A DNA stretch of 64,000 bases from an uncultured delta proteobacterium (GCA_963753975.1 CAVWEH010000004.1:96001-160000), one strand, 5' to 3'; numbered from the stretch's first letter, positions 26,445 to 63,421 are shown. A program made the numbers and translations. Notes: generated by a model not told the origin, from the letters alone.

Positions 26445-26500
26445 GCATAACGAAGAAATCAGCCGGAGCGTAGCGATCGGCTGTATTGATTTTGTTATGT
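26445..26500 (-). repeat. attC site (56 bp)
   Basis: Minus strand ACATAACAAAATCAATACAGCCGATCGCTACGCTCCGGCTGATTTCTTCGTTATGC; near-identical to three sites at 59.8-61.3 kb. Confidence 0.88.
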
Positions 26501-26557
26501 GTTTATATAAATATGTTTTTCATATAATAATGAGCAGAGTACTTGGGGATAATATTT

Positions 26558-27025
26558 TCATTTCTTTCTGCTATAGGTTGGGTTACATAGAACCCCTCCC
26601 GTACCAATGGTTTGCTCTCGTGAGAATAACCATTTACCTTCATTTTCTTTTGCAATAATCCAATCTCCGGCACATGCATATTTGCTAAGGTCAGAAAAGC
26701 CATACCTGCGTAAAGTTCCGCAAAAGGGACAATTAAGTATATTGAATTGTACGATGTCAGAATTGTCTTGAATAACGTTTATGTCATAGAGTCTCTTAAA
26801 TAATGAATAATTTCTCTTTACTCTTTCTCTAAAGTAATCAAATTGATCAGGTGAAGCTATAATAGGAATTGCCAAACCGACAGTATTCTTCGCAACTCGT
26901 GTAAGCCGCTTGCCCACCATACTTACCGCTTTTGATCTTCCCTTAAATAAGGAAAGAACGAGCACAGTGAGCATAAACGGTGTCATTATCAAATGGCCTA
27001 TTATTGTTCTATAGATATTCTTCAT
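26558..27025 (-). CDS. ATC-hydrolase-like (L-2-amino-thiazoline-4-carboxylic acid hydrolase family) cassette protein
   Basis: CPF...C..D...REQTIGTGG..C pattern recalled for this family; start trimmed to MKNIY. Confidence 0.6.
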   Translation of the reverse strand: MKNIYRTIIGHLIMTPFMLTVLVLSLFKGRSKAVSMVGKRLTRVAKNTVGLAIPIIASPDQFDYFRERVKRNYSLFKRLYDINVIQDNSDIVQFNILNCPFCGTLRRYGFSDLSKYACAGDWIIAKENEGKWLFSREQTIGTGGVLCNPTYSRKK

Positions 27026-27034
27026 ATTTCTTGC

Positions 27035-27063
27035 ACATAACAATGTTTATACAGTCTGTATAA
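27035..27063 (-). other. Putative attI site 1
   Basis: Minus strand TTATACAGACTGTATAAACATTGTTATGT, 5 nt after the intI stop; ends in the core site of the first cassette. Confidence 0.7.
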
Positions 27064-27068
27064 ATCGG

Positions 27069-27203
27069 TTAAAGGCCGTCAAAAGGACTTCGCATACCGT
27101 GGCCTCCTTTGTTTAAAACATGGGTATAAATCATTGTCGTTTTCAAATCTTTATGGCCAAAAAGTTCCTGCACTGTTCGTATATCATATCCGTCTTTAAG
27201 CAG
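27069..27203 (-). pseudogene. intI: Integron integrase C-terminal remnant
   Basis: [44 protein letters not shown], the characteristic IntI tail including the catalytic Tyr; upstream sequence is unrelated. Confidence 0.88.
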
Positions 27204-27267
27204 GAAAGGATTTTTAGGCAACATCGTTTTCACCAATAAGACATTTTTACGGCATTGAAAAAATATT

Positions 27268-27296
27268 TTGACAATATTTAATTTTTGCATTAGGAT
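27268..27296 (+). promoter_or_regulatory. Sigma70-type promoter of the leu operon
   Basis: TTGACA-17 nt-TAGGAT upstream of the leader peptide. Confidence 0.65.
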
Positions 27297-51636: not shown

Positions 51637-54295
51637 TTATCTATATTTGTCCTGCTTTGTCAGTAATTTCTCCAAACCAGAGAAAACTTTGCCCAAATTT
51701 TCCGGTTGTGTGCCACCGGCCTGAGCCATGTCGGAGCGGCCGCCGCCACTGCCGCCCACCAGCGGTGCGAGTTCCTTGATGATGTTTCCGGCGGAATATT
51801 TTCCGGCCAGGTCTTTGGTCACCATACACAAAAGCAACGCTTTCTCTCCGGTCTTACTGCCCAGAAAGATAACGCCGGATTCCATTTTGTCGCGTAGCTT
51901 ATCACCAAAGTCGCGCAGCGTTTTGACATCGGTAATACTCACTTCCGCGGCCAGCACCTTCACTCCGCCGATTTCGCGCGTCTGGCTGAGCAGATCACTG
52001 GAATCCTTGGCGGCGAGTTTTCCTTTGAGGGCTTCAATTTCTTTTTCCAGATCTCTTGCGTGTTTGAGCAATTTTTCGGTTCTGTCCACAAGCTCCAGAG
52101 GATTAGCCTTAAATAATCCGGCGGCTTTTTTGAGTTCTTCTTCCGCCTTCTGCACATGCGTAAGCGCTTCCTTACCGGTGACCGCTTCGATTCTGCGCAC
52201 ACCCGCGGCTATGGCCGATTCGTGGATAACCTTGAACAAGCCGATCTCGCCTGTTTGCTGCACATGCGTGCCGCCGCAAAGCTCCATGCTCATCTCGCCC
52301 ATTTTGACAATACGGACGGTCGCGCCGTACTTTTCATCAAACACAGCCGTGGCACCGGTTTTAAGCGCGTCTTCCAACGCGCAAACTTCCGTCTGCACGG
52401 GCAGATTTTTGCGAATCATATCATTGGCGATATCTTCCACACGCTGTAGTTCTTCATCACTGATTTTAGAAAAGTGAGTAAAGTCGAAACGCAACCGTTC
52501 GGCTGTCACCTGCGAGCCGGATTGTTTGATGTGATCGCCCAGCACGGCTTTGAGCGCTGCCTGTAAAATATGCGTGCCGGAGTGATTGGCCTGAGCCGCC
52601 CTTCTTTTTTCGGCATCGACAATCAAATGCGCTTTATCGCCGATTTTAATATTTCCCTTTTGCACAATACCTTTATGCACGATAAAATTTTCCACCGGCT
52701 TTTTGGTCTCGAGCACAGCAAAGTCAAAACCTGCTCCTTTTAAAAAGCCCGAGTCACCTATCTGACCACCGGACTCACCATAAAATGGAGTTCTCTCTAC
52801 AACGATTTCCGCCTTCTGGCCTTCGCTTGCACTATCGGCAAGTTTCCCATTCACAAAAATAGTCGCAATACTCGAATCTCCTATAGTCACTCCCTCATAA
52901 CCGCAAAACTCACTCGATATGCCGGAGCTGGAAGCTTTCAGGTAGCACTCAGCCACTGCTTCTTCACCGCTCCCCTTCCAGGCGCCACGCGCTCTTTCGC
53001 GCTGCTTCTCCATCTCGGCTTCAAAGCCAGCCGTGTCGAGTGTAAAATTATCTTTTTTAACAATGTCCGCAGTCAAGTCGGTGGGGAAACCAAAGGTATC
53101 GTAGAGTTTGAAAACCAGTGTGCCGGGTAGAACCGATTTCGCCCGCTTCTTTCAGGGCTGTCGTTTCTTCCTGTAAAATGCGCAATCCGGCGTCGAGCGT
53201 TTCCATAAAACGCTGTTCTTCGTTGAGAATAACTTTGGTAATGTAAGAAGCCTTATCGGCTAGGTCGGGATAGGTATATTTCATCATATCAATGACGACT
53301 CGCGCGCTTTCGTGTAAGAACGGTTTGTTGATGCCCAGCATCTTGCCATGACGCGCGGCGCGGCGCAAGATGCGCCTGAGCACATAACCGCGGCCATCGT
53401 TCGCGGGCAGGATACCATCCCCAATTAAAAAAGTCACAGCACGGCTGTGATCGGCAATGACCCGGATAGAGACATCATTATCGGCATTTTTACCGTAGGT
53501 CTTATCGGATATTTTTTCCATAAGCCGTATCAGGGGAGTGAAAAAATCAGTATCATAGTTACTCTTCACGCCCTGAATAACAGCCGTCAAGCGCTCCAGT
53601 CCCATGCCCGTATCAATGCTGGGCTTGACCAGCGGATTTAATTTTCCGCTTTCATCGCGATCAAACTGGGTGAAGACAAGATTCCAGATTTCCAGATAGC
53701 GGTCACAACCGCAGTCCAGACCGCATTCGGCGCGCCCGCAGCCGGTGCCTTTGCCCTGGTCATAAATGATTTCCGAGCAGGGGCCGCAGGGGCCGGTCTC
53801 CCCCATCATCCAGAAATTACTTTTTTTACCCATGCGGACGATACGCTCTTTCGGCACTTTCATCTTTTTATTCCAGACAGCGAAGGCATCATCGTCTTCT
53901 TCATAAATCGTGACCCACAGCTTCTCTCTGGGCAATTTAACAATGTCGATCAAGTATTCCCATGCCCAGGCAATTGCTTCTTCTTTGAAATAATCACCGA
54001 ACGAAAAATTGCCGAGCATTTCGAAAAAAGTATGATGCCGCGCGGTAACGCCGACATTTTCGAGGTCGTTGTGTTTTCCGCCGGCACGCACGCATTTCTG
54101 GCAGGATGCCGCCTTCGTATAGCCTCTTTTTTCGAGACCCAGAAACGCGTTTTTGAATTGCACCATACCGGCATTGGTGAAAAGCAGGGTCGGATCATCT
54201 TTGGGAATCAAAGCGGAGCTAGCCACTCGTGTATGTCCCTTAGCTTCAAAATACTTTAAAAAACTTTCCCTGATTTCACTCCCCGTTTTCGGCAT
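51637..54295 (-). CDS. alaS: Alanine--tRNA ligase, frameshift near 53140 (probable error)
   Basis: [49 protein letters not shown]. Confidence 0.96.
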
Positions 54296-54774
54296 TAATT
54301 TCCTCCTGTGCTGTCTTTCCCAGTTTTTTTAAGATCAAGCCCGGCGGGAAACCACGACCCATCAGGCTTTGAAATATCCTTTTTTTCGCCTGCAAATCCA
54401 AAATATCTAATTTTTTTCTTGATGCTTTTTTTTTAATTAAAAATGCAATGGCCTCTTCTTCCGAAATTTCCCGGCGTGCCTTCGTCTACCGCGGCTGGTA
54501 TTAATTCCGCCTCCACACCTTTTTCCCGCAGATTGACAAATATTTTTTTATCTCCCCAGAGCTTATTTACAGCAAGATCCCGTGCCCTTTGAACGGCAAA
54601 AGACGCATCATTTAGATAATTCAATTCGCGAAGTTTTTCCAGAGCTTCTTTGACCACAGCTGCGGAAAAGCCTTTCTCCCGCAGCTTTTTCCCCAACTCT
54701 TTTTCCGCGTGCGGACGCAATGATAAAAGACGGTAAGCTTTTTGTTTGGCTGCCGCCAGATCTAAAACCTTCAC
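54276..54774 (-). CDS. recX: Regulatory protein RecX, frameshift near 54480
   Basis: LLSLRPH...[14 protein letters not shown], then RGFP in the second frame; follows recA. Confidence 0.85.
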
Positions 54775-55793
54775 TTATCATCTTCCTGCTCTTTAGCCAC
54801 GATACCCAGCTTGGCTCGTACATCATTTTCCACTGCCGTCATAATATCCGGATTATCTTTTAAAAAGATACGGGAATTATCCCGGCCCTGCCCTATTCTA
54901 TCTCCCTTGTATGAATACCAGGCGCCGCTTTTCTCAATGATACCATTGTCGGCCGCCAGATCCAGCACATCGCCTTCGCGCGATATACCTTCGCCGAAGA
55001 TGATATCAAATTCCGCTTCTCGGAAAGGTGGGGCCAGCTTATTTTTTACAACTTTAACCTTGGTTCTGAACCCGATGACGTCCTGACCGTTCTTTATAGA
55101 AGTCATTTTTCTAATATCGAGCCGCTGCGAAGAGTAAAATTTTAAAGCATTGCCGCCTGTTGTTGTTTCCGGATTGCCGAAGAAAACGCCGATCTTCATG
55201 CGTAACTGATTAATAAAGATAACTGTGGTCTTGGATTTACTGATACTGCCGGTAAGCTTGCGTAGCGCCTGCGACATAAGCCTTGCCTGCAATCCCATTT
55301 GCGCGTCGCCCATTTCACCTTCCAATTCGGCCTTGGGAACGAGTGCCGCCACGGAGTCAATTACCAAAACATCCAAAGCACCGCTACGCACAAGAGTCTC
55401 CGCAATTTCCAATGCCTGCTCACCCGTGTCCGGTTGCGATATAAGGAGATCATCCGTGTTGACGCCAATTTTTTTGGCATAGGTCACATCCAAAGCGTGT
55501 TCGGCATCAATGTAAGCGGCAAGTCCATTTTTCTTTTGCGCCTCAGCGACAATGTGCAGCGCCAGTGTGGTCTTTCCGCCTGATTCCGGCCCGTAGATTT
55601 CAATAACCCTTCCACGCGGGACGCCAAACGTCCCTAAAGCAATATCCAGGCTAAGCGAACCTGTGGATATTGCCGGAACATCGGCAACCCGCTCCGAGCC
55701 ACCCAGTTTCATAATCGATCCCTTGCCAAATTGCCTTTCTATCTGAGTGATCGCCAAATCAACAGCTTTTGATCTGTCTAAATCTGCGCACAT
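54771..55793 (-). CDS. recA: Recombinase A
   Basis: [39 protein letters not shown]; start trimmed to the ATG after GGAGG. Confidence 0.99.
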
Positions 55794-55859
55794 AGTATCA
55801 TGACCTCCATTAATTTTATTGTTTGTAGTTTTTTTAGTTTTCATTGCTATCCTTAATTT

Positions 55860-56442
55860 TTAACCGGAAAAAGAAAACTTTTCCAGCTTTGTATAAATTG
55901 CTCCCTGTCTTGCCAGTTTACTTTCAAATAAAATTATTTCCGAACAGCTAAATTCACCCGCGATGAAATCGTTATACTTATTCAGAGCCTCGCTGATTTC
56001 CCACTAATTCCGGCGGGATTTTAATCCGGCCCAAGGTCAAATGAGCGCGGAATGGCCGGTTTTCCCGCGGAAAACCAATTCCTTCAAAATCCATATCTGA
56101 TGTAGTCTGCAATGCGGTCAATTTTTCCGTATCACCCGCCGTTCCCAGCCAGAGAACACGCGGCCTTCGGGCACCGGGGAAAACACCTAGCTTTTCTATA
56201 GTCAAAGACAGAGTCGGCACCGAAGCTACTTGCTTTTTCATTATAGCGCAAATATTTTTTACATCGTCTTGATCAATGTAGCCGAAAAATTTTAATGTAA
56301 TATGATTGCCTTGCGGTCTTGTCCAACTTATCTTTCCTTTTATTTCTTTTTTTAAATTCTCCTGCAGGCGGGAAACAGCCTCGAGGACATCATCTCCCGG
56401 CTCAATTGCTAAAAAAGCCCGTATCTTCTTTTCTTTTTCCAT
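55860..56442 (-). CDS. thpR: RNA 2',3'-cyclic phosphodiesterase (2H family), frameshift near 55998
   Basis: Two HxT motifs (HITLKF, HLTLGR), PRVLW. Confidence 0.88.
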
Positions 56443-56448
56443 TTGCCA

Positions 56449-57700
56449 TTAACCTTTTCTCTGTAAATAATCTTTGATCATCATCAAAGCCGCTTCTGAG
56501 AAAACATGTTTGTTTCTTTTACGATCCCAGCGAAAAGTGTAATGGCGGCAAATAGTCTGCTTGGAGTCGGCCAGCGCCAGATAAACAGTGCCTACGGGCT
56601 TATCAATGCTCCCGCCTGTTGGACCGGCAATGCCGGTGGAGGAAAGGCCCAAATCAGTGCCGGCAACTCTGCGGATTCCTTCCGCCATCGACCGCGCAGT
56701 CTCTTCGCTTACTGCTCCATACTTTTCAATTACGCCCGCCGGAATGCCGAGCAAATTCACCTTGGCGGCATTGCTGTAAGCCACGACCGCCCGTTCGAAA
56801 AAAGCCGAACTTCCCGCCACATCGGTTAATCGATTAGATATCAGTCCACCGGTGCACGACTCCGCCACAGCCAAGGTCATTTTCTTCTCGATCAACAGAG
56901 CGGCGACAATTTCTTCGAGAGTTTCCTCGCCGTAATGAAATATATATTTTTTAAGCCGCTTGGTTATTTCATCTCTGCGCTATCTTTAATTTATCCTGGG
57001 CCTCTTTAAGAGATTTCCGGCGCGATATCAAAACAAGATGATTTTCAGGGAAAACAGGATAAAAACCAACGCTCACCTCCAAAGAATTAAAATCGATGTC
57101 TTTCAGAGCGTCGTCAACAGCCGCTTCGGAAAGCCCGAAAGTCTTGATGGTTTGTTTGGCAAAATGCCGTTCGTCTTGCGGGAAATATCTGCGCAAAACA
57201 GGAATAACGCCTTCCGGCAACATCCTTCTCATCTCCGCGGGAACTCCGGGAATAACAAAAATAATTTTTCCTTCTGCCGTTCTAAGAGCAAAACCGGCTG
57301 CCGTTCCTATCGGATTGGCAATAATTTCTGCACCGAGAGGGAACATGGCCTGCTTAGCGTTATTTTCTACCCAGCGTAAATTGTATTTGGCAAACCTTTC
57401 TTTGATGCCGCGCAAAACGGTTTCATCAGTGTATAACGGCAAGTCGAAAGCCTGAGCGATAGCGGCAGTTGTTATATCGTCGGCAGTCGGTCCCAGACCT
57501 CCTGTGCAAATTACGGCATCCGTCATCGGCAACAAATAATTTAAACGGTTTTTAATCGCTTCAAAATCATCGCCCACCGACATTATAGCTTCGACGTGCC
57601 AGCCCTGCTGATTCACTTCGCGCGCGATAAACGAAGAATTGGTATCAACAGTGCGGCCGTTCATCAATTCGTTGCCTATGGTTAAGATGCCGATTTTCAT
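56449..57700 (-). CDS. cinA: Competence/damage-inducible protein CinA (MocF + PncC domains), frameshift near 56975
   Basis: IGNELMNG.TVDTN, GGLGPTADD, AESCTGG, GAVSEETA, TGIAGPTGG. Confidence 0.92.
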
Positions 57701-58152
57701 ATCACTCCAAAAAATACCAGTAACCACATCAATAGCCCTGCATAAATCCCGGCGGCAACATCGTCCAGAACAATGCCCAAACCGCCGGCTATTTTTTGCA
57801 GATCGCGGATGGGGAAAGGCTTTAAAATATCAAAAATCCGAAAAAGAATGAACCCGACCAGAAGATGCAACCCCGTTATGGTCACAGGCAGCATCGCCAC
57901 TTGAAAACCGGCAATTTCGTCAATCACAATGCGTTGATCATCTTTTGTCTGATAAATTTTTTCTGCAAGTCCGGCAACATAAACGGCAAGACCCGTGAGG
58001 GCGATCACAATCAAAAGCCGCAATAACCAGGGCAAATATCCGCAAATAAAGCAAATCCCGACGCCAATCAATGTGCCTGCGGTTCCGGGAGCGACAGGAG
58101 AGAGCCCGGAAGCAAAACCCGTGGCCAAGAACTTTATCAACTTTTCACTCAT
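57697..58152 (-). CDS. pgpA: Phosphatidylglycerophosphatase A
   Basis: APGTAGT, IVIDEIAG, FRIFDILKPFPI, GIVLDDVAAG. Confidence 0.95.
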   Translation of the reverse strand: MSEKLIKFLATGFASGLSPVAPGTAGTLIGVGICFICGYLPWLLRLLIVIALTGLAVYVAGLAEKIYQTKDDQRIVIDEIAGFQVAMLPVTITGLHLLVGFILFRIFDILKPFPIRDLQKIAGGLGIVLDDVAAGIYAGLLMWLLVFFGVI

Positions 58153-58317: not shown

Positions 58318-58346
58318 TTGACAATAGAACAATCGTTCTATACCAT
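58318..58346 (+). promoter_or_regulatory. Promoter with an overlapping LexA-type operator
   Basis: TTGACA (58318) -17 nt- TACCAT (58341); palindrome ATAGAAC-AATC-GTTCTAT at 58324-58341. Confidence 0.78.
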
Positions 58347-58353
58347 ACCTTCC

Positions 58354-58941
58354 ATGAAAGTCAAGCGAACTTTACCGGATGTGGAGAAAAAATTTTCCGC
58401 CTTTTTCCGCGCCAACCGGCGTATGCCGACATACTCAGAAGCGGCTGAAATCATTGACGTGCATTCCAAAAGCGTCGTCCACTTCTGGGTAAAAAAGATG
58501 CTGGCCTCCAGGTTTCTGCAAAAGGACGCCAAAGGTTTTTTATCACCGGCGCGCTTATCGCTGGGCTTGCCTCTGGCCGGAGAAGTTTGCGCTGGTTTTC
58601 CTTCACCGGCGGAAGAGGAATTGCGCGACGTCATTTCCTTTGACGAATATCTTGTTGCGCATCCGGAAACATCGTTTCTGCTTTCCGTCACCGGCGATTC
58701 CATGATCGGCGAAGGCATCAGAGAAAAAGATTTAGTAATTGTAGAAAGAGGCCGGGAGCCGAAAAACGGCGATATCATTCTGGCCGAAGTGGACGGAAAC
58801 TGGACTATGAAGTATTTTCGCAAAAAAGGAAAGACGGTAACGCTAGAGGCGGCCAATCCCAAATATCCCCCGATCGTACCGGAGAAGGAATTGCGCATTG
58901 CCGGCGTCATTACGGCGGTGGTTCGGAAATATCACAAGTAA
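58354..58941 (+). CDS. lexA: LexA-like repressor (winged HTH + S24 peptidase with UmuD-type AGFPSPA cleavage site)
   Basis: MPTYSE HTH region, CAGFPSPAEE, GDSM (Ser) and TMK (Lys) dyad; start set to ATG 58354. Confidence 0.82.
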   Translation: MKVKRTLPDVEKKFSAFFRANRRMPTYSEAAEIIDVHSKSVVHFWVKKMLASRFLQKDAKGFLSPARLSLGLPLAGEVCAGFPSPAEEELRDVISFDEYLVAHPETSFLLSVTGDSMIGEGIREKDLVIVERGREPKNGDIILAEVDGNWTMKYFRKKGKTVTLEAANPKYPPIVPEKELRIAGVITAVVRKYHK

Positions 58942-59073
58942 TTATTGCGGCGGCGCGCATCTGTAAAACATATTGACACAAGGCGGCGACAATGATTTTA
59001 TCATTTCAATTCTTCTATTGTTTTCAGATCCGGTTTTACATGCATAAAAATGTTTGGGGAACTCGGAAATGAT

Positions 59074-59137
59074 GCACAATTCGGAAAACCAACCACCTTT
59101 GACCCACCATTCATTTGCCACTCACCTTCTTAAAGAT
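59074..59137 (+). pseudogene. intI: Degenerate integron integrase fragment (box II region)
   Basis: CATTCATTTGCCACTCACCTTCTTAAAGAT = HSFATHLLKD, preceded by a KPTT-like segment; about 55 bp upstream of attI-like site 2. Confidence 0.65.
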
Positions 59138-59191
59138 GAGGATACACACGAAAACGTCTTATACAGAAAGAAACCGTCTGTGTTTACAGAA

Positions 59192-59220
59192 TTATACAGA
59201 CTGTGTAAACATTGTTAAGC
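59192..59220 (+). other. Putative attI site 2
   Basis: TTATACAGACTGTGTAAACATTGTTAAGC; 25/26 nt identical to site 1 up to GTTA; partial direct repeats TTATACAGA/TTTACAGA upstream. Confidence 0.72.
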
Positions 59221-59223
59221 CAT

Positions 59224-59853
59224 ATGGATAAATTTAATTTTCAAAATCTGAGACAATTTGATCTCACTTTTCCTAGCCATTGGTTAGAAGGTGAAGACAG
59301 AGATCAAGCATTTCAAATATCCCACACATTAAGTATGATTCGCAGTTTATTCACCGAAGCTGTTGCTTCCTACGCTTTATTTCAACCACTTACGGCTGAG
59401 AATATTGACGACCATATAGAAAAATGGACAAATAATGATGAAACACCATATGAACGTTGTTTAAATGGTATTTATGCTAAAGCTTTTGTATTCGCTTTAG
59501 ACGGCATTGAGAAACTATTCAATCACCTAGTCACAAGTTATAGCTCACCAGAAAAAGTTAAGCATTTGCACGAGGAATACAGAAGACTATTCGGTCATCT
59601 TAAGCACATCCGCGATTCAGCCATACATATTGAAGATCGTGGCCGGGGGAAAACGCGAAAGCAGAAACCACTTGATACACATATCGTACTTTTGGGTTGC
59701 TTTATTGAAAAGCGTTACACTTTTACTGGTGAAGATGGAAGACAATATGAAGTTGAGATTTCTGAGTCTACATTAAACAAAGCAAAAGCAATTCTCCAAG
59801 AGGCCATTAATTCATATTCATGGATCGAAGTAGGGAAAATAAATTTGGTTTAA
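59224..59853 (+). CDS. Hypothetical cassette protein with an RxxxxH motif
   Basis: AT-rich ORF filling cassette 1; stop codon inside attC R''; RDSAIH. Confidence 0.75.
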   Translation: MDKFNFQNLRQFDLTFPSHWLEGEDRDQAFQISHTLSMIRSLFTEAVASYALFQPLTAENIDDHIEKWTNNDETPYERCLNGIYAKAFVFALDGIEKLFNHLVTSYSSPEKVKHLHEEYRRLFGHLKHIRDSAIHIEDRGRGKTRKQKPLDTHIVLLGCFIEKRYTFTGEDGRQYEVEISESTLNKAKAILQEAINSYSWIEVGKINLV

Positions 59854-59902
59854 CCAGGCAATCCAGCCGATCGCTACGCTCCGGCTGATTTTTTCGTTAT
59901 GT
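59848..59902 (+). repeat. attC site (55 bp)
   Basis: GTTTAACCAGGCAATCCAGCCGATCGCTACGCTCCGGCTGATTTTTTCGTTATGT. Confidence 0.88.
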
Positions 59903-59915
59903 GTCAGGAGGATAA

Positions 59916-60548
59916 ATGCAAAGGAAAACTTTCTGGAAGGCAATTTCCCTTTTTGAATCGGGGCTCTCAGCAGCCGAGTGGGCTTGGAGAATTATAGTCG
60001 TTATATTCATTGGCACTAGCGGAACAGTAACCGCATTTGTGGCTAAAGCAGACCCTGTACTCAAAGCACTTGGTCCTATCTATTGGATTGGTGCAGGAGT
60101 AATTATGGCGCTGGTAATTTCTGTTGTTCTGTTCCTCATAAAGTCCTCACAACTCAAACAGAGCGAAGCGGATCTTAATCGAGCACTGGCTATTCCGCGA
60201 AGCACGGTTAACCCGCTATTGAATAGCTTTACTGATTCAATAATACCCGTCGAAGACTTGAGATTACCGAGGACTCAATTGCACGAAAATAAGCATTTCT
60301 TGAGATGTAAGTTCGTTGGCCCTGCCGCCATCGCAATTTTAGGAGGCACCTATGTTCGCAGTGGCTTCCTTGATAGCGGTGATGTCATAGCACTTCCAGA
60401 TAATGTCGCTCTCTCGGGTATCGTTGTACTCAAGAACTGCACGGTTGAAGATTGCGAGTTCATACGAACAACGATTCTTGTAGATCAAGTTACCGCAAAA
60501 GGTATTGCGACTGTTCCAGGTGCGCAAGTCAAGGGAATGCGCACATAA
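59916..60548 (+). CDS. Hypothetical membrane protein (cassette 2)
   Basis: SD AGGAGG, two N-terminal hydrophobic segments, stop codon inside attC R''. Confidence 0.78.
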   Translation: MQRKTFWKAISLFESGLSAAEWAWRIIVVIFIGTSGTVTAFVAKADPVLKALGPIYWIGAGVIMALVISVVLFLIKSSQLKQSEADLNRALAIPRSTVNPLLNSFTDSIIPVEDLRLPRTQLHENKHFLRCKFVGPAAIAILGGTYVRSGFLDSGDVIALPDNVALSGIVVLKNCTVEDCEFIRTTILVDQVTAKGIATVPGAQVKGMRT

Positions 60549-60596
60549 CCAGTCAATACAGCCGATCGTTTACTCCGGCTGATTTCTTCGTTGGAC
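60543..60596 (+). repeat. attC site (54 bp)
   Basis: ACATAACCAGTCAATACAGCCGATCGTTTACTCCGGCTGATTTCTTCGTTGGAC. Confidence 0.88.
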
Positions 60597-60608
60597 GAAA
60601 GGAAATAT

Positions 60609-61202
60609 ATGAAAAGACAATGGCTTTATTTTGTAATAGTAGTCGTTTTAGCTATTACTCCGGCACTTAGTATTGCTGCTGACTCCATTCTGGGTGAATG
60701 GATTTCTGTGGAAAGGTCAAAGGGAGGTTTAGGCGCGGCAAAGAATTATAATAAAGACGGGACTGTTCAAGCCACTTTTGGTGCGCTCGTAGATTTCAAG
60801 TACAAGGTCACCGGCAAAAAAATTACTCTTTCATTTCCTGAGGCAGATGACATTGTACAGAAGTTTGAAATCAAAGATTCCAAACTTGTACTGACAGACG
60901 CGACGGGCAACAAACAGGAATTAACGCGCATTTCAGACGATGCAATAACAGGACTACTCGGAAAATGGACGGGTGTTCACTACACCGGGGCAAAACAAAT
61001 TCTTCACTTTACTGCAGCCCACAACTGTTATTTAGCAGTTCCCATGATCTCAGCAGACGGTACGTATATCATAATGGGGGATATACTGACCGAGTCATAT
61101 AAAGATAAAGGCTCACAAAATTACAAATGGACAATTCGAGACAATGTCCTAATCCTTACAGACGGCCAAGGCAAGACTGAAAAATACATGAGAAAAAAAT
61201 GA
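60609..61202 (+). CDS. Secreted hypothetical protein with two internal beta-rich repeats (cassette 3)
   Basis: Signal peptide MKRQW...ALSIAA; duplicated LGEW/LGKW...L.LTD..G units. Confidence 0.78.
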   Translation: MKRQWLYFVIVVVLAITPALSIAADSILGEWISVERSKGGLGAAKNYNKDGTVQATFGALVDFKYKVTGKKITLSFPEADDIVQKFEIKDSKLVLTDATGNKQELTRISDDAITGLLGKWTGVHYTGAKQILHFTAAHNCYLAVPMISADGTYIIMGDILTESYKDKGSQNYKWTIRDNVLILTDGQGKTEKYMRKK

Positions 61203-61204
61203 CC

Positions 61205-61259
61205 GTCCAACAATGGCAATACAGCCGATCGTTTACTCCGGCTGATTTTTTCGTTAGGC
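61205..61259 (+). repeat. attC site (55 bp)
   Basis: GTCCAACAATGGCAATACAGCCGATCGTTTACTCCGGCTGATTTTTTCGTTAGGC. Confidence 0.88.
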
Positions 61260-61300
61260 AGTGACCGAATCTATTCACACCCGAAAGGAGATTTTCCACG

Positions 61301-62062
61301 ATGGACATTCCACGGATCTTCAACATCACTGAAAGTGCTCACCGCATCCATGACCCATTCACACCCGAAAAGCTCGCCACTCTCGGCGCGGCGCTGCGTC
61401 TGGAAACGGGAACCCGAGTGCTCGACCTCGGCAGCGGTTCGGGGGAGATGCTGTGCACCTGGGCACGCGATTACGGAGTCATCGGCACCGGCATCGACAT
61501 GAGCCAGTTGTTCACCGAGCAAGCGAAACTCCGCGCTGAAGAACTCGGCGTCGCCGATCAAGTCAAGTTCATCCATGGCGATGCTGCCGGCTACGTCTCT
61601 GACGACAAGGCCGGTGTGGCAGCCTGTCTCGGTGCCACGTGGATCGCTGGGGGAGTCGCCGGCACCATCGAGCTTCTGGCGCAGAGCCTCCGCCCCGGAG
61701 GGATCATCCTCATCGGCGAGCCCTACTGGCGGCAGTTACCGCCGACGGAAGATGTTGCCAGGGGGTGTCTTGCCGGCTCAATCTCCGACTTTCTCCTGCT
61801 TCCGGAACTTCTCGCGTCTTTCGGCCACCTCGGCTACGACGTCGTGGAAATGGTTTTGGCAGACCAAGACAGCTGGGACAGATACGAGGCGGCCAAGTGG
61901 CTCACCATGCGCCGATGGCTTGAAGCCAATCCCGACGACGAGTTCGCGAAAGATGTTCGAGCCAAACTAACCTCGGAACCCGAGCGCTACGCCGCTTACA
62001 CGCGTGAATACCTGGGCTGGGGCGTGTTCGCGCTGATGCCTTTAAAGACCATCGGTTATTGA
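61301..62062 (+). CDS. Class I SAM-dependent methyltransferase, YjhP-like (cassette 4)
   Basis: VLDLGSGSGE motif I; MDIPRIF and WDRYEAAKWLTMRRWL as in E. coli YjhP (recalled); GC-rich. Confidence 0.88.
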   Translation: MDIPRIFNITESAHRIHDPFTPEKLATLGAALRLETGTRVLDLGSGSGEMLCTWARDYGVIGTGIDMSQLFTEQAKLRAEELGVADQVKFIHGDAAGYVSDDKAGVAACLGATWIAGGVAGTIELLAQSLRPGGIILIGEPYWRQLPPTEDVARGCLAGSISDFLLLPELLASFGHLGYDVVEMVLADQDSWDRYEAAKWLTMRRWLEANPDDEFAKDVRAKLTSEPERYAAYTREYLGWGVFALMPLKTIGY

Positions 62063-62107
62063 AATTTTTCGGGCTTTTCAGCTTTTTCTTGCTTTAAAAG
62101 AAGTTTT

Positions 62108-63421
62108 ATGGCTCAACAACTCTTCAGTCTCCATTCCTGGCCGCGCGCTATTGTCCACGTCGACGGCGACGCTTTCTTTACTTCCTGTGAAGAAGTGATT
62201 CATCCGGAACTCAAAGGCAAACCGCTCATCACCGGCGGCGAACGGGGCATTGTGGCCTGCGCCAGTTATGCGGCCAAAAAAATGGGTATCAAACGCGCCG
62301 TGCCTCTCAACGAAGCACGCAAAATCTGCCCGGGCCTGATCATCCTTCCTTCCGATTATGAGACTTACAGCCTGTTTTCACGGCGGATGTTCGACATTAT
62401 GCGCCGCTTCACGCCCGACGTCGAGGAATGCTCGGTGGACGAGGCTTTCGCCGATATCACCGGTATGCGCCGCGCCCTGCACTCCTCCTATGAAGAAATT
62501 GCAGCCATGATGAAAAAAGAAATTGAAAGAGATCTCGGCATCACCGTTTCCGTGGGTGTAAGCATTACCAAGGTGCTCGCCAAGGTTGCCTCTAAATACC
62601 AGAAGCCCTCGGGAATGACGGTCATCAGCGGCAGGGAGATTCCCTCCTACCTTCACGATTTGCCGGTGGAAAAAATCTGGGGGATCGGCCCTGCCACTAC
62701 CAATTATCTCGCCAAGATGGGCATTCGCACCGCGCTTGCTTTCGCCCAACTTCCCGAAAAAATTGTCCTAAAAAAATTCACCAAACCGGGAGTGGAAATC
62801 TGGCAGGAGCTGCGCGGCGAATCCGTTTATGCGGTGACTACCGAAGAAAAAAGTTCCTACGCGTCCATCAGCAAAACCAAGACATTTTCTCCGGCAACGT
62901 CCGATGCCGAATACCTTTTCGCGCAACTGATGCGCAATATGGAATCGGCCTGCATCAAAGCCAGGCGTTATTCTCTCGCGCCGCAAAAAATAATAGTGTT
63001 TCTGAAGAAGAATGATTTCGCTACGACCGACAGTGAAGCGGCCCTTTCTCATCCTTGTGCTTGTCCGCTGGAGTTTACCCACGTCATCCGTGAGCTTTTT
63101 TCGGACTGCTATAATCCACAGGAGCTCTACCGTTCTACCGGTGTCATTCTGCTCGATCTCGCGCCGGACAACAACACTCAGTACACTCTTTTTGACGATC
63201 CCGTGCACGCCGAAAAGATCAAAGATGTTTACGCCGTTGCCGACGAGCTGGGAAAAAAGTTCGGTAAACACGCTCTGCATCTGGGCAGTTCTCACCTGAT
63301 TGAAAAACTCGGCAAAGGACGCCGGGGCTCACCCACCGTACGGGAGCGGACAATTCTCAAAGGCGAGACAAAGCGCCGCCATTTAGGGTTGCCTCTTATC
63401 CATGTAAAAACAGAAGATTAA
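62108..63421 (+). CDS. dinB: Y-family DNA polymerase (Pol IV/DinB-like)
   Basis: HVDGDAFF, ASY.AK, SVDEAF, KVLAKVAS..QKPSG, IWGIG. Confidence 0.92.
   Translation: MAQQLFSLHSWPRAIVHVDGDAFFTSCEEVIHPELKGKPLITGGERGIVACASYAAKKMGIKRAVPLNEARKICPGLIILPSDYETYSLFSRRMFDIMRRFTPDVEECSVDEAFADITGMRRALHSSYEEIAAMMKKEIERDLGITVSVGVSITKVLAKVASKYQKPSGMTVISGREIPSYLHDLPVEKIWGIGPATTNYLAKMGIRTALAFAQLPEKIVLKKFTKPGVEIWQELRGESVYAVTTEEKSSYASISKTKTFSPATSDAEYLFAQLMRNMESACIKARRYSLAPQKIIVFLKKNDFATTDSEAALSHPCACPLEFTHVIRELFSDCYNPQELYRSTGVILLDLAPDNNTQYTLFDDPVHAEKIKDVYAVADELGKKFGKHALHLGSSHLIEKLGKGRRGSPTVRERTILKGETKRRHLGLPLIHVKTED

Follow-up and report, generated by a model that had tools for sequence, protein, structure and literature searches.

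How do the gene cassettes of an integron come to lie between an SOS-type repressor and an error-prone polymerase, and what does this position mean for their expression? The question is raised by a locus of an uncultured delta proteobacterium in the window analyzed here, a stretch of 64,000 nucleotides (nt) (CAVWEH010000004.1:96001-160000 of GCA_963753975.1). A lexA-like gene is followed there by a fragment of an integron integrase gene (intI), an attI site, gene cassettes, and dinB; the insert between lexA and dinB measures 3.2 kb, and all of its parts are on the + strand. A first-pass annotation, made from the sequence alone, had proposed that a cassette array landed inside a lexA-dinB operon, forming an integrase-less, SOS-driven platform served in trans. 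The module is real and an integron did land in it, but it landed whole, with intI. Judged from sequence comparison, it is probable that the window holds a decayed integron nested in lexA-dinB, and that in intact relatives a single damage-induced unit, comprising lexA, intI, the cassettes, and dinB, is transcribed from the LexA-repressed promoter.

Intact integrons behind lexA in related genomes

The source assembly, G000, comprises 2.43 Mb in 6 contigs and is 95.1% complete; the window is G000:C4:96001-160000. Coordinates without a contig prefix are window positions, and G and L numbers label the compared genomes and loci. Integrases of the same IntI clade (at least 70% identity) were found in 15 of 116 Smithellaceae-family genomes. 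In 13 of these 15, intI lies behind a lexA-like gene, as judged from examined loci for ten and from coordinates for three (G053, G054, and G062); the copies in G021 and G083 stand alone. Outside the clade or the family, no lexA was seen near intI within the 0.45 to 1.5 kb visible, either at nine loci of other IntI clades or at 10 copies from 223 genomes of other families. The integrases encoded behind lexA in the relatives are full length and carry the HxFRHSFATH and ELLGH...IYTH motifs, and intI is transcribed toward attI in every intact member examined. L102 has lexA, intI, attI, attC, and dinB together on one contig and one strand, while the window has no intact IntI beside its attI, only a remnant. 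Since the relatives retain an intact intI in place, the integrase-less state is a product of decay and not of design, contrary to the earlier proposal, and what landed in the module is a whole integron with a working intI.

The lexA site was also surveyed across 164 distinct full-length lexA-like loci, leaving out those with a broken lexA (e.g., L312, L314, and L329). A full intI was next to lexA in 8 and a partial one, in some cases ended by the contig, in another 8; attI or attC alone was found in 14, other inserts in 3, and an empty module in 36. No dinB was in view at the remaining 95, many of which run into contig ends. The comparison of relatives that the first-pass annotation had called for shows lexA and dinB linked, with both empty modules and differing cassette content: the arrays vary by genome and carry typical cassette cargo, including toxin-antitoxin pairs.

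The linked integrase genes have lost their own promoter motif. A TTGACA hexamer occurs within 260 nt upstream of 12 of 13 stand-alone intI genes and of none of 18 lexA-linked ones, several of the 18 loci being close kin. The lexA stop codon and the intI ATG are 34 to 39 nt apart in seven loci, and folding of four such short gaps gave no hairpin below −4.4 kcal/mol. Neither the DNA before lexA-linked intI genes nor the lexA-attI interval of the window has an operator. G316, which belongs to another family, has the same operator inside the intI promoter itself and its lexA-dinB on another contig; only this copy has, in form, a LexA box in the intI promoter of the type described by Cambray et al. 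Taken together, the short gap, the loss of TTGACA, the shared slot, and the G316 operator indicate that the integrase is likely SOS controlled by operon capture.

The slot is shared by the modules of two lexA paralogues. Integrons of the two modules differ by 0.29 to 0.42 at four-fold degenerate sites, against 0.49 to 0.59 for their lexA genes; L104 is an exception at 0.56 to 0.62 and looks recombinant. As the integrons are less diverged than the lexA genes, the element appears to have moved between the modules after these split, keeping the same slot. No order of events was read from the IntI tree, which has its root on a long XerD-like branch. The second paralogue, with a GGAC operator, has varied surroundings, a SRAP gene adjoining 7 of its 12 annotated loci.

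A wider proposal, which we put forward tentatively and at slightly less than an even chance, is that operon capture is a second SOS route for integrons. A co-oriented integron lineage, once established within the lexA-dinB module, would have dispensed with its promoter and passed from one lexA paralogue to the other without leaving the slot, with one LexA-repressed transcript firing integrase, cassettes, and polymerase; in another family the same lineage would have taken the operator into its intI promoter, and copies without intI would persist as damage-boosted platforms reloaded by visiting integrases.

Several relatives carry further elements at these sites. In L068 (G017), the lexA-dinB gap contains, besides the methyltransferase cassette known from the window, another DinB gene of short length, a remnant of the intI C terminus, and a toxin-antitoxin cassette of PemK type. 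An intact lexA-linked integron on a metagenome contig includes a lincosamide nucleotidyltransferase-like cassette (L230:2978-3796). Short units that lack a reading frame and contain internal inverted repeats are inserted at attI of L089, L165, and L076.

The integron remnant and cassette array of the window

The features of the locus are as follows (aa, amino acids).
58318..58346, + strand, lexA promoter TTGACA-17 nt-TACCAT (TACCAT at 58341-58346), from the promoter scan and the sequence
58325..58340, palindromic operator TAGAAC-N4-GTTCTA filling the spacer of the lexA promoter, a predicted repressor site
58354..58941, + strand, LexA/UmuD-like S24 repressor of 195 aa, from profile matches, cleavage site, and dyad
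58973..59001, + strand, candidate retained integron promoter TTGACA-17 nt-TG-n-TTTTAT, 31 nt after lexA, without operator
59003..59144, + strand, intI remnant, 5′ leader and start fused to an HSFATHLL-coding stretch, from local alignments to the G021 and G009 intI genes
59069..59218, + strand, leader frame of 49 codons running through attI and stopping on TAA at attI core positions 3 to 5
59151..59220, + strand, attI of the co-oriented type, situated at the intI 3′ end, crossover G/TT at 59214-59216, profile score 64.7 bits
59215..59896, + strand, cassette 1, 209-aa protein (59224-59853) of no known family, 38% GC
59848..59902, + strand, attC 1, profile E value 1.9e-18
59897..60590, + strand, cassette 2, 210-aa protein (59916-60548) of no known family, with N-terminal hydrophobic segments
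60543..60596, + strand, attC 2, profile E value 9.7e-13
60591..61253, + strand, cassette 3, 197-aa DUF5640/lipocalin-like protein (60609-61202; Pfam) with a signal-peptide-like start
61205..61259, + strand, attC 3, profile E value 2.7e-12
61254..62040, + strand, cassette 4, class I S-adenosylmethionine-dependent methyltransferase (61301-62062 by read-through), 60% GC, 3′ end cut and attC lost
62032..62107, + strand, dinB 5′ flank of the GCTGAT...AAAGACC...ATTGAAA type, common to the integron-bearing modules L207, L094, L096, and L107, with the deletion joint
62108..63421, + strand, DinB-like Y-family polymerase of 437 aa, from profile matches, without an operator of its own

Alignments and profiles bear out the intI fragment, the attI-like site, and the polymerase, on one strand, as first described. 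The remnant consists of leader-like DNA (59003-59054) and the HSFATHLL stretch (59095-59144), most of intI having been deleted. It recurs in L207 with 12 differences over the first 182 nt after lexA, between sequences whose four-fold degenerate sites differ at 27 to 28% (25 of 89 in lexA). An assembly error behind the broken intI was rejected, since L207 has the same deletion product. The window attI shares 88% identity over 66 nt (59151-59216) with the site that follows the G021 intI; it belongs to the G021 type, not the G009 type, and so the slot has been occupied or recombined on more than one occasion. A divergent intI, suggested by a strong promoter match on the − strand within attI (59218-59191), was rejected, all intact relatives being co-oriented. 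The leader frame, made from the intI remnant and open in L207 too, stops 5 nt before the cassette 1 ATG. By analogy with ORF-11 of attI1, we infer that its translation may be coupled to that of cassette 1.

The first cassette was inserted precisely at attI. For cassettes 1, 2, and 3, R″ matches the cassette's own 5′ junction at 7/8, 8/8, and 8/8 bases, and outside the fixed core 14 of 15 variable bases agree (P of about 4e-8). The attC profile was built from 18 attC sites of other genomes, themselves collected with a G000-seeded profile, and its E values are therefore partly circular. The sites follow the R″-L″-L′-R′ layout and have an extrahelical bottom-strand base, 88% of cells being paired compared with 18 to 39% when slid; covariation among them did not exceed that of shuffles (258/500), the sites being nearly identical. 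Cassettes 1 to 3 are single promoterless genes in one orientation, each closed by an attC. The description of four cassettes thus holds for three; the fourth is cut at 62038-62040, via a short GCTGATG match with the dinB flank where native copies diverge, and has no attC. With three attC sites in an assembly without an intact intI, the window on its own is a wreck resembling a CALIN (cluster of attC sites lacking an integron integrase).

No Pfam or NCBIfam match was obtained for cassettes 1 and 2, and Atlas matches to the cassette 1 protein are hypothetical clusters only. Cassettes 1 to 3 were also considered as known defense genes and rejected, PADLOC giving no match to them and only a methyltransferase model for cassette 4. 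The cassette 4 methyltransferase is widespread, with related genes in L068, L210, and L312.

The repressor, its operator, and dinB

The repressor (Peptidase_S24; E value, 4.5e-29) is the sole S24 gene found in G000. It scores between LexA and UmuD (TIGR00498, 109 bits with a cutoff of 110.95; NF007621, 110.3 with a cutoff of 110), and it has an A80-G81 cleavage site and an S116/K153 dyad, both invariant in 6/6 aligned proteins. Together with the palindrome at 58325-58340, these features confirm the LexA/UmuD-like repressor with an operator in its promoter that had been noticed at first reading. The perfect TAGAAC-N4-GTTCTA occurs once in all 2.43 Mb of G000. Upstream of lexA homologues, GAAC-N4-GTTC is present in 107 of 148 distinct regions; most of the lexA paralogue clade has GGAC-N4-GTCC, altered in both halves, and the remaining regions have neither motif within 60 nt. 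This conservation, and the alteration of both halves along with the lexA paralogue, support a real, self-regulating operator to which the repressor is predicted to bind. Operators were found only before lexA, one per lexA gene, aside from G316, which also has one before intI, and from dinB loci lacking lexA. The repressor seems to work like an autoregulated LexA/UmuDAb-type regulator of a small regulon. The lexA ATG lies 7 nt past the −10 hexamer (58341-58356) without a ribosome-binding site, a spacing kept in homologues, and the lexA mRNA is therefore likely leaderless.

Counts in the promoter and terminator scans were at chance level (7 versus 7.1 and 9 versus 7.6), and single matches were for that reason used only alongside conservation. 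An Rfam search of the locus found nothing. The absence of a clear terminator before the array, as first noted, agrees with the scan, which found no terminator-like site between lexA and attI; what had been overlooked is the operator-free promoter candidate at 58973, a motif that the promoter scan misses as its −10 lacks the A at position 2. Motifs of this type also precede the stand-alone intI of L313, L328, and L337. The Pc-like segment of intact relatives (described below) is deleted in the window, and the intI promoter motif is retained in its place. Dependence of the cassettes on the LexA promoter alone is not borne out, given the surviving 58973 motif here and the Pc-like promoter in intact relatives.

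The polymerase scores best under Pol IV models but below their cutoffs (245.7 versus 256 and 264.6 versus 371; UmuC, 148 versus 431). The lack of a separate promoter or operator before dinB was upheld: the best operator match there has 4 mismatches, and the promoter scan gave no promoter-like site. The gap between the lexA-like gene and dinB is 185 to 192 nt in the three closest congeners (G002, G011, and G013) and 20 to 49 nt in several others, and dinB genes standing apart from lexA bear their own operator at four loci (L071, L073, L083, and L084). That lexA and dinB form one module is supported. At the same four loci and at L075 (G016), lexA is truncated or missing while the operator and promoter remain, immediately in front of dinB or of a 3-kb insert.

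The polymerase encoded at 62108-63421 has a C-terminal tail of about 75 aa past the IMS_C domain. Its partner, the repressor, scores as UmuD and, once cleaved, may double as a UmuD′-like subunit, an idea taken from PMC6511836. A membrane-type protein of 77 aa, conserved but without a Pfam family, is often encoded 3′ of lexA, before intI or dinB (L090:9793-10023 and homologues).

The preferred account, that of a lexA-intI-cassettes-dinB unit, would run as follows. RecA-stimulated self-cleavage of the repressor would free the lexA promoter, and read-through from it would give a burst of integrase and error-prone polymerase, so that the shuffling of cassettes would come under SOS control with no LexA box in any intI promoter. 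In G000, with intI deleted, the array would stay fixed unless some integrase came in from elsewhere. Its transcription would start at tandem promoters, the inducible lexA promoter and the weak operator-free integron promoter; with two such promoters, cassette expression would be basal with a rise after damage. dinB in G000 would depend on read-through across the 3.2 kb.

Evidence against a single damage-induced unit and alternative explanations

Several observations weigh against this account. The integrase gene is often broken at the lexA site (full in 8, partial in 8, and attI/attC only in 14 of the 164 loci). As the linked loci are kin, the absence of TTGACA from 18 of them does not represent 18 independent events, and a promoter inside lexA with a non-consensus −35 may serve the linked intI. 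In intact elements the intI stop is immediately followed by a strong, conserved hairpin (−16.6 to −24.7 kcal/mol), which could end the transcript, and between it and attI a conserved promoter-like (Pc-like) motif, TTGATT-17-TATTAA; with both, the cassettes and dinB may have a damage-independent promoter. The best operator match around the 58973 promoter has 5 mismatches and that before recA has 6. By neither a DNA-binding domain nor recA control does the repressor resemble a canonical LexA, for all its Ala-Gly site and Ser-Lys dyad. Its N-terminal domain gave no Pfam DNA-binding match, LexA DNA-binding included, and we thus only infer that it binds the operator. None of 24 sequencing runs shares more than 0.13 of the words, and among four runs aligned, reads of the three RNA runs are essentially restricted to the widespread methyltransferase cassette (cassette 4), giving no transcript support.

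The alternative that fares best, which we consider unlikely, is that the lexA-dinB gap is merely a tolerated landing site: the integron would use its own promoters (Pc or that at 58973), and its position would carry no regulatory meaning. The conserved hairpin and Pc-like promoter fit this, as does the fact that the window and L207 retain the promoter motif of the integron, in DNA that is far more conserved (12/182) than four-fold sites (25/89 in lexA); decay of intI is frequent, and five of the six attI-like sites of G000 lie away from lexA. A landing site of this kind is hard to reconcile with the loss of TTGACA in 18/18 linked copies, with gaps of 34 to 39 nt that leave little room for a promoter, and with the presence of 13 of 15 family copies in one slot, behind two lexA paralogues and amid varied surroundings. 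G316, moreover, gained an operator directly.

A cassette platform maintained without integrase, SOS driven and served in trans by an integrase elsewhere, as initially proposed, we judge to be quite improbable. The intact intI that was to be sought in the rest of the genome did not turn up: PF00589 and TIGR02249 (no match over cutoff) and tblastn revealed none in the G000 assembly (95.1% complete), where the integrase-like genes found are XerC/D-like, of phage type, or a C-terminal intI piece only. Congeners have intact copies in cis, the L207 attI is undergoing erosion, the window has a truncated cassette 4, and the second promoter candidate has no operator. Service in trans retains some backing. 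L207 has the same dead remnant with a further in-frame 30-nt deletion, and wholly different cassettes behind a perfect first junction; hence it and the window share one remnant and no cassette, each with a precisely inserted first cassette. In addition, attI persists without intI at 14/164 loci, the Pc segment is deleted in the window, and the leader frame through attI is open in both. The window and L207 are not sisters on the lexA tree (FastTree only), empty modules lying between them. Their common remnant may have moved sideways, though no recent exchange tract was seen in lexA or dinB; either it was selected as a promoter and leader while a visiting integrase swapped the cassettes, or the block moved sideways.

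That the insert acts as a brake on dinB, lowering expression of a polymerase 1 to 7 kb from its promoter with integrase control incidental, is very improbable. In its favor, the window's dinB lacks both an operator and a promoter-like site, and elsewhere dinB lies up to 7.2 kb away (L094), is frameshifted in some loci, and is missing behind 39/60 pgpA-linked lexA loci (some of them contig-end cuts); against it, dinB is intact in the window and most array-bearing loci, and the added promoters (Pc and those of toxin-antitoxin cassettes) would raise its basal expression, not lower it.

Relation to known systems

For the LexA-controlled integrases of class 1 and Vibrio chromosomal integrons (Cambray et al. 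2011, PMC3108266), the intI promoter contains an E. coli-type LexA box. Among the intI promoters analyzed there, no LexA motif of another kind turned up; delta-Proteobacteria are listed with the groups that have divergent motifs, and the result is linked to integrase decay in such groups. Integrase inactivation is also described as frequent in soil and freshwater lineages. The integrons described here share the predicted SOS control of the integrase and its frequent inactivation, but intI is downstream of lexA, its own promoter motif is lost, dinB follows the array, and the motif is TAG(A/G)AC-N4-GT(T/C)CTA, not the E. coli box. How integrases are restrained where LexA ignores the E. coli box was left open in PMC3108266, with inactivation as the main answer; the lexA-linked loci suggest another. 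Scans of intI promoters would miss operon capture, the operator being before lexA and not before intI.

The Treponema integrons (PMC3607928) likewise have intI, attI, and cassettes on one strand with attI at the 3′ end of intI; the likeness is one of orientation, and that paper does not mention lexA. The CALIN category of Cury et al. 2016 (PMC4889954) takes a minimum of two attC sites without an adjacent integrase, and 15 of 279 CALINs there have a nearby intI pseudogene; the window agrees on these points, including the close pseudogene, but differs in its retained attI, the intact ancestral form at the same locus in congeners, and the position of the array inside an SOS module. The operon lexA-imuB-C-polY of Geobacter sulfurreducens is reported to be damage induced as a single transcript (PMC6511836, citing Jara et al. 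2003). That operon and UmuDAb-type repressors (PMC8565304) have in common with our module a self-regulated S24 repressor linked to a Y-family polymerase and a small regulon without recA; they differ in the operator, the repressor here falls between LexA and UmuD, and the descriptions of those operons mention no integron. ORF-11 of attI1, in the relevant part of PMC8876359, is also a short frame through attI with its stop at core positions 3 to 5 and a first cassette just downstream without a ribosome-binding site. The frame here differs in its 49 codons and its origin from an intI wreck, and its function is only predicted.

A literature search, mostly of non-subscription journals and excluding supplements (that of PMC3108266 among them), found no description of integrons nested in lexA, umuDC, or imu operons. 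The loci form a graded natural series: an empty module, an intact integron 34 to 39 nt behind lexA, an integron with intI deleted, and an operator in the intI promoter. If the proposed control holds, stress would act through a single switch on both point mutation and the shuffling of cassettes in syntrophic sediment and digester bacteria, and cassettes next to dinB would be expressed when the cell mutates most.

Other integron pieces in G000 and neighboring genes

G000 has 15 attC and 6 attI-like matches. A second integron remnant lies in the window at 26446-27290 (− strand), with the C-terminal 44 codons of intI (82% identity to the G009 IntI), an attI of reduced length, a single cassette, a single attC, and a gene for a short-chain dehydrogenase; its Pc segment is missing, having been deleted between duplicate TTATACAG palindromes. 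Additional attI-like sites and attC clusters belonging to this family, in no case with an intact intI, are at G000:C4:203020-207550, C1:30460-32262, C1:80241-82823, C1:189820-189857, C5:433019-433072, C5:508535-508602, and C5:547136-547197. In this IntI clade, a perfect palindrome after the intI stop varies with the attI core, being of a CCGATCC type or a TTATACAG-N-CTGTATAA type (L090, L102; G000:C4:203015-203045), and may be an integrase-binding site or a terminator.

The divergent cinA-recA-recX neighborhood noticed at first reading is present, with two further genes.
54433..58152, − strand, pgpA, cinA (two frames), 2H-phosphoesterase, recA, and a recX-like frame, from the annotation
Besides cinA (56449-57727), alaS (51637-54295) and xerD (G000:C2:602452-603487) are each in two frames. 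These splits are probably indel errors of the assembly, yet cinA is split in G002 too.

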